Part shown: positions 19,264 through 26,838 of the stretch, piece by piece
Numbering within the stretch: position 1 is the first letter of the stretch
Layout of the letters: every line of letters starts with the position of its first letter
Assembly (NCBI GenBank): GCA_011620555.1
Contig: WOYY01000070.1
Span: 12,163-76,162 of the forward strand
DNA length: 64,000 bases
DNA from: Anaerolineaceae bacterium
Lineage (GTDB): Bacteria > Chloroflexota > Anaerolineae > Anaerolineales > Anaerolineaceae
Direction of reading: 5' to 3'
Program-made: the position numbers and the translations under genes
The notes under the pieces: generated by a model
What the model was told of the DNA's origin: nothing
What the model saw: the letters and a program-made list of their open reading frames with translations, nothing else
Database searches by the model: none

Positions 19264-20712
19264 TCAGAGATAGTCTTTCAGCATTTCCTGCACAATGCCG
19301 GGATTGGCCTGGCCGCGCATCTGGCGCATGACCTGGCCAAAGAACCATTGCCGCAGGGCCACCTTGCCCGCGCGATAGGCCCGGACCTCATCGGGATGCT
19401 CCGCCAGCACCTGCCGGACGACCGCCGCAATGGCCTCCCGGTCGGAGACCTGCGCCAGCCCTTCTTTTTCGATGATCGCCAAAGCTCCCTGCCCGGTGGC
19501 GGCCATCCTGCCCAGGACGGTCTTGGCTGTGGCGTTATTGATTCTGCCTGCCATCAACAGGTCCAACAGGGCAGCCAGCCCGGCAGGGTCAATCTGCAAG
19601 TCCTCCAGGGCCGCGCCGCTGGCATTCAGCAGGCCAAAGAGTTCGCCAGTCACCCAGTTGGCCGCCAACGCGGCGTTGGGATTGGACATGGCATGCAGGG
19701 TGGCTTCATAGAATTCAGCGGTCAGCCGGTCATCCGTCAGGACTTCCGCTTGATAGGCATCCAGCCCCAGTTCGCGCTGGAAACGCCGGAATTTGCGATC
19801 CGGGCGTTCCGGCAGGCTGGCTTTGGCCGTTGCAATTTGCTCGGGGCTGATGACCAGCGGGGGCAGGTCCGGCTCGGGGAAGTAGCGGTAGTCGTGGGCT
19901 TCTTCCTTGCTGCGCTGAGAGACAGTCACTTCGGCGGTTTCGTCCCAGCCGAGGGTCTCCTGGGCCACCTTGCCGCCCGCATCGAGGAGGGCCGTCTGGC
20001 GGTCCAGCTCGTAGGCGACGGCCGCGGTCATCGTGCGAAAGCTGTTGAGGTTTTTGATCTCGACCCGGGTGCCCAGCGCGTCGCTGCCTTCAGGGCGCAC
20101 GGAGACGTTCGCTTCAAAGCGGATCACGCCTTTTTCCAGGTCACCGGAGTTCACACCGAGGTATTGCAGCACCATCCGCAGGGCGCGGGTGTAGGCCAGC
20201 ATCTGGTCAAGGGAGTGCATGTCCGGCTCGGAGACGATCTCAAGCAGGGGAATGCCGGCCCGGTTGAGGTCCACCAAGGAGTAGGCTTCATCCTCGTTGT
20301 GGATGTGGGTCAGCTTGCCAGTATCTTCCTCCAGGTGCACTCGGCGGATACGGATATCCTTCCAGCCGTCCTCGGCCAGCACCGGCAGGAGGCCGTGCTC
20401 CGCCAGGGGATATTCATATTGGGAGATCTGGTAGCCTTTGGGCAGGTCGGGATAAAAATAATTCTTGCGGGCGAACTGGCTGACCTCGTTGATCTCGCAA
20501 TCGAGGGCGAGGGCCACCCGCAGGCCGAAAGCCACCGCCTGGTCATTCACCACGGGCAAAGTGCCGGGCATCCCCGCGCAGACAGGGCAGACCGCCGTAT
20601 TGGGTTCTGCCCGGGTGGAATCCAGCACCGGACAGCCACAGAACATTTTTGATTGGGTTTGCAGTTCGGCGTGGACTTCCAGGCCAATATCTGCGAAATA
20701 TCCAGATTTCAT
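19264..20712 (-). CDS. gatB: Asp/Glu-tRNA amidotransferase subunit B
   Basis: IGLEVHAEL, RKNYFYPDLPKGYQISQ, HLEEDTGK, YRYFPEPDLPP. Confidence 0.98.
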   Translation of the reverse strand: MKSGYFADIGLEVHAELQTQSKMFCGCPVLDSTRAEPNTAVCPVCAGMPGTLPVVNDQAVAFGLRVALALDCEINEVSQFARKNYFYPDLPKGYQISQYEYPLAEHGLLPVLAEDGWKDIRIRRVHLEEDTGKLTHIHNEDEAYSLVDLNRAGIPLLEIVSEPDMHSLDQMLAYTRALRMVLQYLGVNSGDLEKGVIRFEANVSVRPEGSDALGTRVEIKNLNSFRTMTAAVAYELDRQTALLDAGGKVAQETLGWDETAEVTVSQRSKEEAHDYRYFPEPDLPPLVISPEQIATAKASLPERPDRKFRRFQRELGLDAYQAEVLTDDRLTAEFYEATLHAMSNPNAALAANWVTGELFGLLNASGAALEDLQIDPAGLAALLDLLMAGRINNATAKTVLGRMAATGQGALAIIEKEGLAQVSDREAIAAVVRQVLAEHPDEVRAYRAGKVALRQWFFGQVMRQMRGQANPGIVQEMLKDYL

Positions 20713-20799: not shown

Positions 20800-21960
20800 T
20801 CAGAGGCGCCTGACGAATCGGCCGATTTTTTCCAGGGCGATCTCCAATTTTTCATAGCTGGTTGCATAAGAACAGCGGACAAAGCCAATGCCTGCATCGC
20901 CAAAGGACGAGCCAGGCACCACGGCCACTTTTTCTTCCAGGAGCAGCCGCTCAGCAAAGCGCTCGTCATCCAGCCCGGTGTTATGGATGCTGGGGAAGGC
21001 GTAAAAAGCGCCGTGCGGTTCAAAGGTGGGCAGGCCCAGAGCGTTCAGGTTTTCCACGATGAACTTGCGCCGCCGGTCATATTCGGCCAGCATTTCGTTA
21101 ATATAAGGATCGCCGACTTTGAGCGCGGCCAGCGCGCCGTATTGCGAGACGGTGGGGGCGGACATCACCGAGAACTGGTGGATCCGCACCAGGCCTTGGA
21201 TCAGGGTGGCAGGTCCGGCGGCGTACCCGATCCGCCAGCCGGTCATGGCATAGTCCTTGGAAAAGCCGCCCAGGAGCAAAGTACGTTCCTGCATCCCTGG
21301 GAAGGCTGGAAAACAGACATGCTCCTGGCCGTAGACCAGCCGGTCGTAGATCTCATCCGAGATCACGACCAGATCGTGCTTTTCGGCGATCCGGCCGATC
21401 TCTTCCAGGACCTCCCGGCTGGCCACCGCGCCGGTCGGATTGTTGGGATAGCCCAGCAGGATGGCTTTGGTTTTGGGCGTGATCGCTTTTTCGATCAGAG
21501 CCGGGTCGGGCTGGAAGTCATCTTCCATGGTCGTATAGATTTCAACCGGAACCCCGCCCGCCAAGGCCACTTCGGCCTGATAGGACACAAAGCAGGGGGT
21601 CGGGATGATGACCTCGTCGCCGGGGTCGAGCAGCGCCGTGAAGGTGAGGTAAAGCGCTTCGGAAACGCCGACCGTGATGACGATCTCGTTGACCGGGTCA
21701 TACTGCACGCCGTAGCGGTTTTGGAGGTTTTCGGCAATCGCCTCGCGGAGCGGCAGGATGCCGGAGTTGGACGTGTAGTGGGTCTCGCCCCTTTGCAGGG
21801 CCTGCACCCCGGCCTCAATGATCGGCTGCGGCGTTGTGAAATCCGGCTCACCGATCCCCAGGGAGATCACATCGTCCATTGTCGCGGCGATGTCGAAGAA
21901 TTTCCGGATTCCGGAAGGTTTCAGGTTGGTCACGGCCTTTGAAAGATAACTTTTGGGCAT
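20800..21960 (-). CDS. Class I/II PLP aminotransferase
   Basis: SLGIGEPDF, YPNNPTG, SDEIY, GFSKDYAMTGWRIG. Confidence 0.93.
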   Translation of the reverse strand: MPKSYLSKAVTNLKPSGIRKFFDIAATMDDVISLGIGEPDFTTPQPIIEAGVQALQRGETHYTSNSGILPLREAIAENLQNRYGVQYDPVNEIVITVGVSEALYLTFTALLDPGDEVIIPTPCFVSYQAEVALAGGVPVEIYTTMEDDFQPDPALIEKAITPKTKAILLGYPNNPTGAVASREVLEEIGRIAEKHDLVVISDEIYDRLVYGQEHVCFPAFPGMQERTLLLGGFSKDYAMTGWRIGYAAGPATLIQGLVRIHQFSVMSAPTVSQYGALAALKVGDPYINEMLAEYDRRRKFIVENLNALGLPTFEPHGAFYAFPSIHNTGLDDERFAERLLLEEKVAVVPGSSFGDAGIGFVRCSYATSYEKLEIALEKIGRFVRRL

Positions 21961-21998
21961 TCAAGCTCCTTGAAGGTTGAGGTGGATAGATCCTAATT

Positions 21999-22238: not shown

Positions 22239-23252
22239 TCAGGGCACCGCGCAGCTGTTGTCGCCGAAGTTGGCCCGGCCGGACTGGCCTTTGAGGGCCA
22301 CATTGTGGCCGATCAGCGAATCTTCCAGCCGGCATTCCGTGAGGGTGGAGCCGGGGCCGACAATGCTTTCCCGCAGCAGGCAGCCTTTGACGATCACGTT
22401 CTCGCCGATTGAGACATCCGGGCCAATCACTGAATTGCGGACGCTGGCCGAGGGGTGAATGAACACTGGCGGAATGATAACCGTATTTTCGGCCTGGGTC
22501 AATTTGTCGCTGTTGTCATAGCCGTGGTTCAGCAGGTAGTGGTTGGTATCCAGCAGGGATTCGGGCGTGCCGGAATCGAGCCAGACATCCACTTTTTGCA
22601 CCCGCATCTTCAACCCGCGCTTCAGCAGGATATTGATCGCATCCGCCAGGTAGAATTCGCCGTTGAGGTACATTTCCTGTTCGATCTGTTCCTCAACGGC
22701 GGAGAGGATCAGGGCGGCGTTCTTGAAGTAGTAACAGCCGACCATTGCCAGGTTGTTGGATAAATCTTCGGGCTTTTCGATCAGCTTCGAGATCCAGCCA
22801 TCCTCATCCAGCAGTGTCACGCCGAAGCGGCGCGGGTCGGGGACGGGCTTGACCCAGATCACGCCATCGGCGGTCTCTTCCGCCAGGCAGGAGAAGTCGT
22901 TTTGGATGATTGTATCGGAAAAGGCGATCAGCAGGGGTCCCTGGAGGGCTTCTTTGGCCTGCCAGAGCGCGTCGGATTGGCCGCGCATCACCGTATCGAT
23001 TGGGAACTGGGCTTTCCAGTCCGGATAGAAACGGGCCATGTGATCCCGGATCTGGGGTTCCACCTGAGCGTTGACGGAAAAGATGAATTCAGCCGATCCC
23101 AAATCGGGAAGGGTCCTGAACATATCCAGAACAAAATCGATCACCGTTTTGCCGGCCAGGCTGACCAGCGGTTTGGGGCGGCTCCAGGTGAGCGGCCGCA
23201 GTCGGCTGCCAAATCCCCCCATCGGGATCAGGACTTTGATCGCACTCTCCAA
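22239..23252 (-). CDS. Sugar-phosphate nucleotidyltransferase with C-terminal hexapeptide repeats (paralog 2)
   Basis: PMGGFGSRLRPLTWSRPKPL, DPRRFGV, EKP, WLDSG. Confidence 0.9.
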   Translation of the reverse strand: MESAIKVLIPMGGFGSRLRPLTWSRPKPLVSLAGKTVIDFVLDMFRTLPDLGSAEFIFSVNAQVEPQIRDHMARFYPDWKAQFPIDTVMRGQSDALWQAKEALQGPLLIAFSDTIIQNDFSCLAEETADGVIWVKPVPDPRRFGVTLLDEDGWISKLIEKPEDLSNNLAMVGCYYFKNAALILSAVEEQIEQEMYLNGEFYLADAINILLKRGLKMRVQKVDVWLDSGTPESLLDTNHYLLNHGYDNSDKLTQAENTVIIPPVFIHPSASVRNSVIGPDVSIGENVIVKGCLLRESIVGPGSTLTECRLEDSLIGHNVALKGQSGRANFGDNSCAVP

Positions 23253-23290
23253 AATCTCACCTCCAAAAATCGTGGCTCAGGGTTGGACCG

Positions 23291-24304
23291 TTATTTGATC
23301 GCCCAGGAGTTATCCCCAATATTGAACCGCCCGGATTGGCCGGTGATGTTGACATTGTGGCCGACCAAAGAGCCTTCCAGCATGGAGCTGGTGACGTGCG
23401 TACCGGGGCCGATGATCGAATCGCGGATGGTGCTGTCATTGACCACCGCGCCCTCCCCCAGCGAGACATGCGGACCGATCACCGAAGTGCTGACCCGGGC
23501 CGTGGGGTGGATATTGACCGGGGGGATGATGACGGTATCTTCCAGGTTGACCACCTTGTCGGAATTGTCCTGACCATGCTCCAGCAGGTAGCGGTTGGTT
23601 TCCAGCAGGGTCTCGGAGGTCCCCGCATCCAGCCAGACGTTCACCCTTTCTGTGCGCATCCTCAGGCCGCTCTCCAGCATTTTGTTGATCGCATCGGCCA
23701 GGAAGTATTCGTTTTTCAGGGAGATATTGCGCTTGATCTGTTCTTCGATGGCAACAATCAGGTCTTCCGCTTCCTCGAAGTAGTAGCAGCCGACCACGGC
23801 CAGGTTGTTCTGGATGTCCTGGGGCTTTTCCACCAGGCGCGTCACCCAATTGTCCTCATCCACCTCGGCCACGCCGAAGCGGCGGGGGTCCGGGACGGAT
23901 TTGACAAAGGCCACGCCGCCTGCGGTTTCATCCGCCAGGAAGGAAAAATCATTGTTGATCAGCGTATCGGAAAAGGCCATCAGCATCGGGCCATGCAGGA
24001 ATTCGCGCGCTTGCCAGAAGGCATCCGACTGGCCCTTCATCTCCGGCTGGACGGCGTAATCCACGTGCCTGTCTGGGTAGTGCCGGGCGACATGCTCTTT
24101 GATCTGCTCGCCCATCGTGGGGCCGAGGATGAAGACGAACTCCGATTGCTCAAAATTGGGCACTGACCGGAACATATTCAGGACCTGGTCGAGCACCGTC
24201 CCGCCCGCCAGGCTGACCAGCGGTTTGGGCTGGCTCCAGGTGAGCGGCCGCAGGCGGCTGCCGAAGCCGGCCATCGGGATCACAATTTTCAGAGCTTGAG
24301 TCAT
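23291..24304 (-). CDS. Sugar-phosphate nucleotidyltransferase with C-terminal hexapeptide repeats (paralog 1)
   Basis: PMAGFGSRLRPLTWSQPKPL, DPRRFGV, EKP, WLDAG; start at MTQALK with AAGGAG RBS. Confidence 0.9.
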   Translation of the reverse strand: MTQALKIVIPMAGFGSRLRPLTWSQPKPLVSLAGGTVLDQVLNMFRSVPNFEQSEFVFILGPTMGEQIKEHVARHYPDRHVDYAVQPEMKGQSDAFWQAREFLHGPMLMAFSDTLINNDFSFLADETAGGVAFVKSVPDPRRFGVAEVDEDNWVTRLVEKPQDIQNNLAVVGCYYFEEAEDLIVAIEEQIKRNISLKNEYFLADAINKMLESGLRMRTERVNVWLDAGTSETLLETNRYLLEHGQDNSDKVVNLEDTVIIPPVNIHPTARVSTSVIGPHVSLGEGAVVNDSTIRDSIIGPGTHVTSSMLEGSLVGHNVNITGQSGRFNIGDNSWAIK

Positions 24305-24335
24305 GGTTGTACTCCTTGAATTGGCATTCTTCAGA

Positions 24336-25052
24336 TTACTCGAATCCATTTCTTTTTCTATGCAACACCAGATATTTCGCGTTCGGTTTATCTGCTATTG
24401 GATTTGTAAATTGATTGGTTTTTTCTAAAACCAAATTTATCATTTGACTTTGTGACTTTTTCTTTAATATTCTAAGATCATCTGAAAATGAGATGTATCC
24501 ATATTCAACTAAGGGGTCATGAAAGCGGCATAGGCACACAATATTGGCGAGGTCTCCTCGACCTTCATAATTATCAGCCCAACGTGCGAGGTGGGCAGAA
24601 ATTAGAAATTTTTCATCGCTGATGTCACATAAGGCACATCGGGAATGATAATTGTTCAATGTTAAACTTCGAAGTCTTCGTTGACCAATTCTTTGCCTTG
24701 TTTCGATGGTCTTTTCACTGACATTTACGTTATTGAAATTCAGCTTGTGTTCTTTTATTGCCTTGTCAATTACCTTATTTGGTAAATCTTCATGTTCAAT
24801 ATCGATATTATGGATCAGCGAATAATAAGTTCCGTGCTTTCCTCGAATGAATTCAAGTAGGTTTTCATCTCTGAGTTCTTGCAGAACCCGACTCAAGGTT
24901 TGAGAGGGCGTTTCTCCAGTGGAGTCAGCTTCCTGAGTTATGAGCGGGAGCTGCTGATCAATTAATTCTTGACGTGTAAAAATTTTACTGTCTTTTGTTT
25001 CGGTTAGTCGGACTATTCCATTTATGACGGCATCTCTCCAGATAAGCGTCAT
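24336..25052 (-). CDS. HNH endonuclease with N-terminal winged-helix-like domain (candidate modification-dependent restriction enzyme)
   Basis: CALC...SAHLARW...NIVCLCRFH HNH core; N-terminal LSRVLQELRDENLLEF..GKHGTY; AAGGAG RBS; AT-rich. Confidence 0.8.
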   Translation of the reverse strand: MTLIWRDAVINGIVRLTETKDSKIFTRQELIDQQLPLITQEADSTGETPSQTLSRVLQELRDENLLEFIRGKHGTYYSLIHNIDIEHEDLPNKVIDKAIKEHKLNFNNVNVSEKTIETRQRIGQRRLRSLTLNNYHSRCALCDISDEKFLISAHLARWADNYEGRGDLANIVCLCRFHDPLVEYGYISFSDDLRILKKKSQSQMINLVLEKTNQFTNPIADKPNAKYLVLHRKRNGFE

Positions 25053-25081
25053 AGTGGCTCCTTGATTGATCTCACAAGCAA

Positions 25082-26545
25082 CTATTCCGGCCAGTTCTCG
25101 TGCCACGGGGTGGCCAGTTGGTAGGCATGGCCCACCTGGAAGAGCAGGTCTTCCCTGAAATGCGGGCCCATCAACTGCATGCCGACCGGCATCCCGTCCG
25201 AGTCCGGCCCCACGGGGAAGGCCAGGCCGGGGACGCCGGCCAGGTTGGCCGGCAGGGTGAAGACGTCTTCGAGGTACATCGCCAGCGGGTCATCGGTGTG
25301 CTGGCCGAACTTGAAAGCCGTGGTGGGGGCGACGGGCGCGGCGATCACATCCACCTGCTCAAAGGCCAGGTCGAAATCGCGTTTGATCAACGTGCGGACC
25401 TTTTGGGCCTTGCCATAGTAGGCGTCGTAGTACCCGGCGGAGAGCGCATAGGTCCCGAGCATGATCCGGCGCTTGACCTCGGGGCCGAACAGCCGGCCGC
25501 GGGTCTCGGTGAACAGCGACCAGAGGTTATTGTCTTCGCCCAGTCGGGGGCCAAAACGGATGCCGTCGTAGCGCGCCAGGTTGGCGGAGGCCTCGGCTGG
25601 CGCGATCAGGTAGTAGACCGGCAGAGCATACTCGGTGTGGGGCAGGTGGATCGGGATGGCTGTGGCGCCCTGCGCTTCCAGCTGGGCGATTGCGGCCCGC
25701 ACTCGTTCTTCCACTTCGGGCTGGATGCCCTCGATGAAATATTCCTCGGGCACGCCGACCCGCAGGCCTTTGAGCGAGTCGCTCTCGGGCAGGGTATACT
25801 CCGGGACGGGCAGCTGGACGCTGGTGGCATCCAGCGGGTCGAACCCGGCCATGTGCTGGAACAAGGTGGCAACATCGGCCACGTTGCGGGCGATCATCCC
25901 GACGGTGTCCAGCGAGGACCCATAAGCCACCAGGCCATACCGCGAGGTGCGGCCGTAGGTGGGCTTGATGCCCGTGGCGCCGCAGAAGGAACAGGGCTGC
26001 CGAACGCTGCCGCCGGTATCGGTGCCGAAAGCCGCGGGGGTCATCCGGGCGGCGACGGCCGCGGCCGACCCGCCGCTGGAGCCGCCGGGCACCCGGCCTG
26101 TGTTCCAGGGGTTGCGGCTGGGGCCATAGGCGGAGTTCTCCGTGGAAGACCCCATCGCGAATTCATCGGTGTTGGTCTTGCCGAGGGGAACCACACCCGC
26201 ATCCAGCAGGCGCTGGACGGCGGTGGCGGTGAAGGGCGGGATGAAGTTTTCCAGGATTTTGGAGCCGCAGGTGGTGCGGACGCCCTCCAGGCAGAGCACG
26301 TCTTTGACCGCCAAAGGCAGCCCTGTCAGCGGGGGCAGATCGTCGGGCTGGCTGGCCCGCAGCTTGTCCGCGTTTTTGGCGGCGGCCAGGGCTTTCTCCG
26401 GCGTGAGCGTCAGGAAGGCGTGAATTTGGGGTTCCAGCGCGTCAATCCGCTGCAACAGAGCCTGGGTCAGTTCCAGGCTGGAAAAGTCCCCAGCCTGCAA
26501 GCCAGCCAGGCAGGCGCGCACGCCCAGCTGGGTCAGGTCGGTCAT
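25082..26545 (-). CDS. gatA: Asp/Glu-tRNA amidotransferase subunit A
   Basis: GKTNTDEFAMGSSTENS, PGGSSGGSAAA, GTDTGGSVRQP, EVKRRIMLGTY. Confidence 0.98.
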   Translation of the reverse strand: MTDLTQLGVRACLAGLQAGDFSSLELTQALLQRIDALEPQIHAFLTLTPEKALAAAKNADKLRASQPDDLPPLTGLPLAVKDVLCLEGVRTTCGSKILENFIPPFTATAVQRLLDAGVVPLGKTNTDEFAMGSSTENSAYGPSRNPWNTGRVPGGSSGGSAAAVAARMTPAAFGTDTGGSVRQPCSFCGATGIKPTYGRTSRYGLVAYGSSLDTVGMIARNVADVATLFQHMAGFDPLDATSVQLPVPEYTLPESDSLKGLRVGVPEEYFIEGIQPEVEERVRAAIAQLEAQGATAIPIHLPHTEYALPVYYLIAPAEASANLARYDGIRFGPRLGEDNNLWSLFTETRGRLFGPEVKRRIMLGTYALSAGYYDAYYGKAQKVRTLIKRDFDLAFEQVDVIAAPVAPTTAFKFGQHTDDPLAMYLEDVFTLPANLAGVPGLAFPVGPDSDGMPVGMQLMGPHFREDLLFQVGHAYQLATPWHENWPE

Positions 26546-26838
26546 TCCTGTCCTCCCAAAATCGGGGGGACCTGGAATTGGTCATCCCGTGTGTTGGCGG
26601 CGTTTTTCAGCACGTCTTTGGTGGGCAGGCCCGGCCGGGAGCGATCTTCGCGCAGGCGGAGCTGCAAGTCGAGGACGCTGGCTGTGGGCGGGATCTGATC
26701 GGTGGCCAGTTCGTCCAGCCGGGCGGCATAGTCCAGGACGTCCGAGAGCTGTTCGGCGTAGCGCTGTTGCTCTTCCTCGGTCAATTCCAGGCGGGCCAGA
26801 GCGGCAATGTGTTCAACTTCTTCAATGGTCAGCTTCAT
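26542..26838 (-). CDS. gatC: Asp/Glu-tRNA amidotransferase subunit C
   Basis: EEVEHIAALARL, LRED, overlaps the gatA start. Confidence 0.95.
   Translation of the reverse strand: MKLTIEEVEHIAALARLELTEEEQQRYAEQLSDVLDYAARLDELATDQIPPTASVLDLQLRLREDRSRPGLPTKDVLKNAANTRDDQFQVPPILGGQE

Follow-up and report, generated by a model that had tools for sequence, protein, structure and literature searches.

A candidate stand-alone, modification-dependent wH-HNH nuclease retained in the gatCA...gatB cluster of Brevefilum-like Anaerolineaceae

Within a 64,000-nucleotide stretch of DNA from an Anaerolineaceae bacterium (contig WOYY01000070.1; the whole stretch is referred to here as the window), a minus-strand open reading frame (ORF) of 238 codons, with its ATG at 25052 and its stop codon at 24336–24338 (ORF list and translation), lies between gatA and an NDP-sugar nucleotidyltransferase gene. 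A preliminary description of the locus had called this gene more AT-rich than its neighbors, and its GC content (0.378 compared to 0.59 for the window) is indeed that of the lowest 700-nt stretch in the 64 kb (z = −4.4). By analogy with studied relatives, the product would belong to the winged helix (wH)-HNH family and be a type IV (modification-dependent) restriction endonuclease that stands alone, a reading to which we assign a probability of roughly 0.7.

The C-terminal half of the protein is predicted to be an HNH nuclease whose active site is intact, as in the wH-HNH type IV enzymes. The core first noticed as CxxC..H..N..CxxH can be placed at C139xxC142, H154, N170 and C175xxH178, with D179 and E183 in addition. 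VcaM4I (PDB 6yex) was matched among PDB sequences at 5e-5 by the protein alone and at 3e-12 by a family profile (n = 40 aligned sequences, from a set of 106 full-length homologs), and an AlphaFold2 model of the protein (predicted local distance difference test, pLDDT, 95.6) matched VcaM4I (E = 1.7e-5) and TagI (PDB 6ghs; E = 1.7e-3) using Foldseek. The VcaM4I residues H224, N241, D250 and D254, for which roles have been assigned experimentally (PMC7897488), align with H154, N170, D179 and E183, all of which are invariant or >90% conserved in the family; C139, C142, C175 and H178 are also conserved. By this alignment, H154 would act as the general base and D179 and E183 as metal ligands, while C139, C142, C175 and H178 probably hold a structural zinc. 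The Pfam family HNH_2 (PF13391) was matched by 40/40 aligned family members at E-values up to 0.1 (best, 1.1e-13) and its label is precomputed on many homologs, the HNH part of the window protein matches an NCBIfam model for phosphorothioate-DNA restriction enzymes, and the best PADLOC model was ‘HNH’ (E = 3.5e-20). VcaM4I (EVE-HNH) and TagI (SRA-HNH) are the best match in sequence and fold, sharing the HNH_2 domain, the preceding R.GQ..(F/L)R linker helix and the catalytic H/N/D/D(E) residues, but their sensors are base-flipping domains of the PUA superfamily for 5-methylcytosine and 5-hydroxymethylcytosine and not winged helices.

For the N-terminal half, the predicted models give a helix-strand-helix-helix-hairpin order over residues 1–80 (H5–20, E24–26, H27–42, H49–62, E66–69, E75–78), and the LQELRD-type segment pointed out in the preliminary description, LQELRDENLLEF..G.HGTY, does occur here and hardly varies across the family. 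The Pfam family DpnI_C (PF17726) was matched by 14/40 family members at E < 0.1. Searching an N-domain profile against 1.84 billion representative proteins returned 476 proteins (294 at E < 1e-10) that join the module to other domains, several of which match the N-domain at E < 1e-17 and reach the DpnI_C gathering score over the same stretch (P0243, 23.6 bits; P0247, 23.4 bits; cut-off, 23). Further, the family profile is colinear with HhiV4I across both wH and HNH (residues 2–237 against 148–381; hhalign probability 98.5%, E = 1.5e-15), and the HhiV4I winged helix scores 60 bits on DpnI_C. By this transitive profile evidence, the N-terminal domain is a predicted winged helix of the DpnI_C type. 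The initial proposal of a DpnI-like winged helix is thus upheld as a family link, by way of HhiV4I and the DpnI_C scores of the fusion proteins, but not for the residues that contact Gm6ATC.

Fusions of winged helices to nucleases have been described as N6-methyladenine (m6A)-dependent type IV enzymes, with wH-HNH proteins being 224–283 aa in length, mostly haloarchaeal and mostly without neighboring methylases (Helbrecht et al. 2024, PMC11037411). At 238 aa, with two domains and homology to the wH-HNH enzyme SruGXI, the window protein falls within this description. The SruGXI sequence (P0340, WP_103425724.1; record identity confirmed) was recovered via a Halorarius homolog, a term search of the PMC11037411 supplements having found no enzyme sequences. 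The two proteins share 31% identity over 200 aa (BLASTP E = 1e-22), which makes the window gene, as judged by homology, a bacterial member of the already described wH-HNH family. Both are encoded by stand-alone genes, have the same two-domain layout (232 compared to 238 aa) and carry a recognition helix of the type TP.QT[LM]SRVLQELRD, but SruGXI is haloarchaeal rather than from the Chloroflexota, and it lacks the C139xxC142 ... C175xxH178 set, reading RCPVSG ... LDRTHH instead. In Escherichia coli, SruGXI reduced transformation 100–1000-fold in Dam+ but not Dam− cells (PMC11037411). The second close relative, HhiV4I (also HHPV4I; ORF6 of Haloarcula hispanica pleomorphic virus 4, 381 aa), is a Gm6ATC-dependent enzyme (PMC11037411, PMC10101028) with a homologous wH-linker-HNH module and the same LQ.LRD...(I/L)EF...G.Y signature. 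It differs in being encoded by a virus, in an additional PUA-type N-terminal domain of ~147 residues (PUA/SRA-wH-HNH) and in its recognition helix, which reads AKIRQQLQ (K197, Q200), as in DpnI, where the window protein has QTLSRVLQ. R.DpnI itself (type IIM; PDB 4esj, 4kyw) shares the wH family, but its nuclease is of the PD-(D/E)XK type and its winged helix is at the C-terminus.

No cognate methyltransferase was found near the gene. In the window and at the syntenic loci of relatives, where the neighbors are gatC, gatA, the nucleotidyltransferases, the aminotransferase and gatB, no methylase adjoins it. At 44 non-syntenic homolog loci the 136 neighboring ORFs belong to 147 Pfam families, none recurring more than three times, with a single C5 methylase among them, and no conserved partner gene was found at these loci. 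The gene is solitary, as first described, and its placement among the solitary type IV enzymes is supported by homology to HhiV4I and SruGXI, the conserved catalytic residues and the lack of a methylase partner. The reuse of the wH module with defense-type effectors (TIR, AIPR, PIN and NOV_C/DUF3427) also counts toward a role in restriction. As a mechanism, the DpnI_C-type winged helix would place QTLSRVLQELRD, its recognition helix, in the major groove and would bind DNA only if a short motif is modified, which, going by the relatives, would most likely be with N6-methyladenine. The HNH_2 domain probably dimerizes, as in VcaM4I and TagI, and would cut near but outside of the bound site. If host DNA lacks the mark, as the relatives suggest, a methylase would be unnecessary.

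Which modified motif would be read depends on the recognition helix, in which Q51, T52, S54, R55 and Q58 are invariant in the family. Profile alignment places Q51-T52-L-S54-R55-V-L-Q58 over A-K197-I-R-Q200-Q-L-Q of HhiV4I, and the DpnI residues E228, K229, R231, Q232 and Q235, which form the methyl pockets and base contacts (PMC3424567), coincide with the invariant positions 51, 52, 54, 55 and 58. Only the final glutamine is common (Q58 = DpnI Q235); the other four read Q, T, S and R, and the DpnI-type motif (E/A)-K-x-R-Q-x-x-Q is absent. Gm6ATC specificity, which had been suggested by the resemblance to DpnI, cannot be assumed because the recognition helix is without the K, R and Q residues of DpnI and HhiV4I. 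The GATC/m6A motif is present in only approximately 10% of wH fusions, while for the rest the mark and its context are unclear, and SruGXI was picked as a representative despite being without that motif (PMC11037411). SruGXI shares the helix type seen here (TPEQTMSRVLQELRD); the tested enzymes HspD1I and HboP9I have a DpnI-like AKLRQ.LQ helix. On these comparisons, the window protein is probably an m6A reader. Judging by the in vivo behavior of SruGXI, Dam-type GATC is one candidate for the sequence context; the non-DpnI contact residues and VchI, a wH-HNH protein from Vibrio cholerae, suggest that it could be a different one. Compared by its described residues, VchI matches the window protein in having arginine where DpnI has Q232 (VchI R45, window R55), but has V42 at the K229 position where the window protein has a threonine. 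With 574 occurrences compared to 514 expected, GATC shows no depletion in the window, a count that says nothing either way.

The same QTLSR(V/I)LQELRD winged helix was found fused to TIR_2, AIPR, PIN_9 with HEAT repeats, ParB_N and DUF3427 with NOV_C, and further to classical HNH (PF01844), RAMA and sigma-70 region 4 (P0167, P0179, P0201/P0139/P0168/P0218, P0161, P0140, P0152/P0186, P0243 and P0194). The TIR, AIPR, PIN, ParB and DUF3427 fusions go unmentioned in PMC11037411. In a further protein from a JGI metagenome (P0112, 372 aa), a wH-HNH module very close to the type in the window (helix TPAQTLSRVLQELRD) is preceded by an additional domain of ~130 aa at the N-terminus; the protein equals in length the Dictyobacter enzyme DauS27I, which was tested in PMC11037411.

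The history of the gene at this site was traced through relatives. At least 11 syntenic orthologs were identified (L001–L006, counted once; L087–L093; L167; L168/L169). In a sister organism recovered from ENA metagenomes (L001–L006), the flanking proteins are 93–97% identical and the HNH protein 82%. The same gatA|HNH|nucleotidyltransferase slot is occupied in L087 (gatA 91%, HNH 76% identical), in L167 and L168 (HNH 70–73%), and in L088, L089, L092 and L093 (HNH 50–58%, gatA 79–86%), while in L090 and L091 the link between the HNH and nucleotidyltransferase genes is kept, with no gatA upstream within the sequence fetched. HNH identity declines in step with flank identity, and the nine syntenic genes that were placed in a maximum-likelihood tree, which has 50 family members in all, group together as a single clade (support 100/99). 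An empty site occurs in Brevefilum sp. AnMBR.bin505 (L172), where gatA and the nucleotidyltransferase gene are 57 bp apart, and the two genes are adjacent in many more distant Anaerolineae. From the synteny, the clade support and the empty sites, it follows that a single insertion brought the gene into a permissive junction, in an ancestor of a Brevefilum-like clade of the Anaerolineaceae, and that its inheritance has been vertical since then. The gene is foreign but old. Horizontal acquisition at some time, as originally envisaged, agrees with the low GC and the empty sites in L172 and the distant Anaerolineae, whereas a recent, strain-level import is ruled out by the synteny and the tree; vertical conservation at this site, named beforehand as an outcome that would count against the proposal, is what is seen within the clade.

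In other Anaerolineae, what lies between gatA and the nucleotidyltransferase gene varies (loci L011, L013, L015, L016, L019, L022, L031, L038, L041, L049, L076, L077, L083 and L084 were looked at). The cargo of this junction includes a HEPN + NTP_transf_2 toxin-antitoxin pair (L083), an O-methyltransferase (L041, L076), peptidase M3 (L013 and others), a chromate transporter (L031), YccF (L011), an aldo-keto reductase (L049) and a rhodanese (L084). One homolog, 70% identical to the window protein and labeled as Hyphomonas (WP_321508940.1), was considered as a cross-phylum transfer and rejected, as the record has the full Anaerolineae context gatC-gatA-HNH-NTP-NTP-AT-gatB. The corresponding contig (L167; ENA ERZ21873832 ctg9772l, 3.47 Mb), labeled ‘uncultured Hyphomonas sp.’, carries the cluster rsgA-RNHCP-...-gatC-gatA-HNH-NTP-NTP-75aa-AT-gatB with a gatA that is 91% identical, and its taxonomic label looks wrong.

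Several observations weigh against a restriction enzyme of this kind. The protein's own match to HNH_2 is below the gathering threshold (18.4 bits compared to 21), as is its own match to DpnI_C (residues 17–70, E = 0.11, 13.2 bits compared to 23). DpnI was not found among PDB sequences by phmmer or hmmsearch with the protein, the family profile or the N-domain profile, searches that did pick up VcaM4I and TagI, nor was it among the 50 matches listed when the full model and the N-domain model were compared to the PDB using Foldseek. That comparison, put forward at the outset as the check on a DpnI winged helix, gave only generic winged helices (best matches cullin WHB, MukE, ORC and MecI; E no better than 2.7e-3), and in this case winged helices cannot be told apart by a search on fold. 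T52, S54 and R55 replace the residues with which DpnI and HhiV4I contact the methyl groups and GATC. The window protein and all bacterial members of its subfamily would seem to be known from sequences alone, and among the studied enzymes the evidence for SruGXI is in vivo toxicity only, with in vitro activity not determined (PMC11037411), the other tested wH-HNH enzymes were mostly inactive in vitro (PMC11037411), and VchI binds Gm6AG, not Gm6ATC, without cleavage under any condition tried (bioRxiv 10.1101/2025.05.22.655678). Long syntenic retention within a housekeeping cluster is, in addition, unusual for defense genes. The last three of these points, together with the shared arginine at the R55 position and with purifying selection at a single site throughout the speciation of the clade, which is atypical of defense genes with fast turnover, would suit a domesticated, non-cleaving reader of methylated DNA with a role in regulation or chromosome biology, as proposed by the authors of the VchI study for that protein. 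We consider such a reader unlikely, as a pure binder would not need H154, N170, D179, E183 and the Cys/His set, which are invariant or nearly so family-wide, and SruGXI is strongly toxic in Dam+ cells. Moreover, the homologs from outside of the clade (Chloroflexota, Planctomycetota, Burkholderiales, Acidobacteriota, Deinococcota, Bacillota and archaea) are scattered in unrelated neighborhoods and usually have a GC content below that of their surroundings, which is the pattern of a mobile defense gene.

The divergence of the gene within the clade bears on a different possibility. Purifying selection is evident from dN/dS values (ratio of non-synonymous to synonymous substitution rates) of 0.06–0.11 against the syntenic orthologs, the same as for the flanks. 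Synonymous divergence, however, is much larger in the HNH gene (window and L001: dS 1.32, flanks 0.19–0.43; L167 and L168: dS 1.43, flanks 0.43–0.55; close relatives overall: dS 1.3–1.5, saturated, flanks 0.2–0.7), and dN rises by a similar factor, such that the gene diverges 3–7 times faster than its flanks. The GC content at third codon positions (GC3), compared in the window, L001, L087, L088, L089, L093, L167 and L168, is 0.31–0.42 in the HNH orthologs (0.56 in L093) and 0.61–0.86 in adjoining genes. Because GC3 stays low despite saturated dS, the low GC is maintained and is not the residue of a recent import. Possible causes are a weaker GC-biased gene conversion, within-clade exchange of alleles, and selection for rare codons by which a nuclease that is toxic would be throttled.

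Faster divergence at synonymous and non-synonymous sites alike, as if alleles moved between lineages, could be expected of a free-standing HNH homing endonuclease whose target is the empty gatA|nucleotidyltransferase junction and which is spread by recombination between the conserved flanks. A single AT-rich gene that sits between two conserved neighbors, is unaccompanied by mobility genes and occupies a junction that takes other cargo in other Anaerolineae would also agree with this. Homing is nonetheless very improbable. A homing enzyme would vary its contacts with its target, but here the recognition surface does not vary with the insertion site, being invariant across contexts, phyla and the TIR, AIPR, PIN and ParB_N fusions; the nuclease belongs to the HNH_2 type, as do those of VcaM4I, TagI and HhiV4I, and is not I-HmuI-like; and the HNH tree within the clade roughly tracks flank identity. 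A type II-like or non-specific HNH nuclease, with its protecting methylase or inhibitor encoded elsewhere in the genome, is hinted at by the second-best PADLOC model (‘Type II restriction enzyme’, E = 3.5e-12) but has very little chance of being correct, given the absence of methylases at the syntenic loci, the single one among 136 ORFs elsewhere, the published survey, in which 87% of wH fusions had no methylase next to them (PMC11037411), and the modification dependence of the closest studied relatives.

How the gene came to be in the junction had been explained by microhomology, based on a short direct repeat that flanks the gene and contains the ribosome-binding site. The 8-mer CTCCTTGA does occur at 24312 and 25058, but a third copy is present in the window at 21966, and its coding-strand form, TCAAGGAG, lies 5–7 nt ahead of the start codons of the aminotransferase gene, nucleotidyltransferase 1 and the HNH gene, which follow one another on the minus strand. 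In relatives, the spacers at the orthologous junctions are different, each with its own Shine-Dalgarno sequence, and have no repeat in common. The 8-mer is therefore a ribosome-binding motif and not an insertion scar, which removes the basis for acquisition by microhomology and rules out a target-site duplication.

On the minus strand, the order of genes is gatC, gatA, the HNH gene, nucleotidyltransferases 1 and 2, a 76-codon ORF, the aminotransferase gene and gatB (Table 1), a cluster that is conserved in the Anaerolineae. The gene had been placed inside the gat operon; it does follow gatC-gatA and is on the same strand as the gatB cluster, but gatB itself lies beyond the nucleotidyltransferases and the aminotransferase. 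The spacers are 29 nt from gatA to the HNH start and 31 nt from the HNH stop to nucleotidyltransferase 1, with AAGGAG in both, and a consensus scan found no promoter- or terminator-like site beside the HNH gene on its strand. Co-transcription with the neighbors is plausible given these short spacers with Shine-Dalgarno sequences and the lack of promoter- or terminator-like sites adjoining the gene. A search for RNA sequencing runs covering the region found none, only DNA runs from oil-field metagenomes.

Table 1. Features of the wH-HNH gene and its cluster (window coordinates).
Feature	Position	Strand	Basis
wH-HNH gene (P0001)	24336..25052	−	238 codons + stop; ORF, translation, homologs, dN/dS, AlphaFold2
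N-terminal winged helix (predicted), residues 1–80	24813..25052	−	Models, Foldseek, weak DpnI_C match, HhiV4I profile alignment
Recognition helix (predicted), residues 49–62 (PSQTLSRVLQELRD)	24867..24908	−	Invariant columns; alignment to HhiV4I, DpnI
Linker helix (R119, R121, G123, R128) + HNH_2 nuclease domain (predicted), residues 114–238	24339..24713	−	Profile, Foldseek, Pfam
HNH core, residues 139–183	24504..24638	−	Alignment to VcaM4I; conservation
Shine-Dalgarno of HNH gene, right ‘repeat’ copy	25058..25065	−	TCAAGGAG, 5 nt before ATG
Shine-Dalgarno of nucleotidyltransferase 1, left ‘repeat’ copy	24312..24319	−	Ahead of ATG at 24304
gatC	26542–26838	−	ORF
gatA, upstream neighbor	25082..26545	−	ORF; Pfam Amidase in orthologous loci
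NDP-sugar nucleotidyltransferase 1, downstream neighbor	23291..24304	−	ORF; Pfam NTP_transferase in orthologous loci
NDP-sugar nucleotidyltransferase 2	22239–23252	−	ORF, paralog of nucleotidyltransferase 1
Aminotransferase gene	20800–21960	−	ORF
gatB	19264–20712	−	ORF

Elsewhere in the cluster, the mechanical ORF call starts nucleotidyltransferase 1 at 24349 (23291–24349), overlapping the HNH stop; its true start is the ATG at 24304 (MTQALKIVIP...), which has its own Shine-Dalgarno sequence and is the methionine at which orthologs of 336–337 aa begin. The two nucleotidyltransferases are a tandem duplication (22239–24304; copies 59% identical) also seen in L001, L089, L092, L167 and L168, with the gene being single-copy in L088, L090, L091, L093 and most other Anaerolineae. 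Upstream of gatC, L167 (516–1990) and L168 (532–2006) have rsgA (RsgA_GTPase) and an RNHCP-domain gene; in the window, an ABC-transporter gene comes directly next.

Taking the recognition helix, the fusions and the codon usage together, a more speculative picture can be drawn, which we hold only tentatively and think more doubtful than the assignment as a type IV enzyme. The QT(L/M)SR(V/I)LQELRD helix may represent a separate class of modified-DNA specificity (other than Gm6ATC, perhaps a different mark or m6A in a GAG-like context) that serves as a plug-in sensor across defense effectors (HNH_2, HNH, TIR, AIPR, PIN-HEAT, ParB_N and DUF3427-NOV_C), one of which might have become fixed in the Brevefilum-like clade as an operon-embedded guardian, expressed at a low level with selected AT-rich codons.

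The locus extends the wH-HNH family from the haloarchaea to the Chloroflexota and many other bacterial phyla, and most members of the family have a recognition helix that differs from the one structurally understood for the reading of Gm6ATC. To our knowledge, few m6A-dependent nucleases have been characterized, and an enzyme with a new m6A context, if that is what the gene encodes, would be useful as an epigenetic tool. Retention at a single site in the gatCA...gatB cluster, with a maintained low GC3, would make this gene a small, clean case for how toxic defense genes are kept and throttled.

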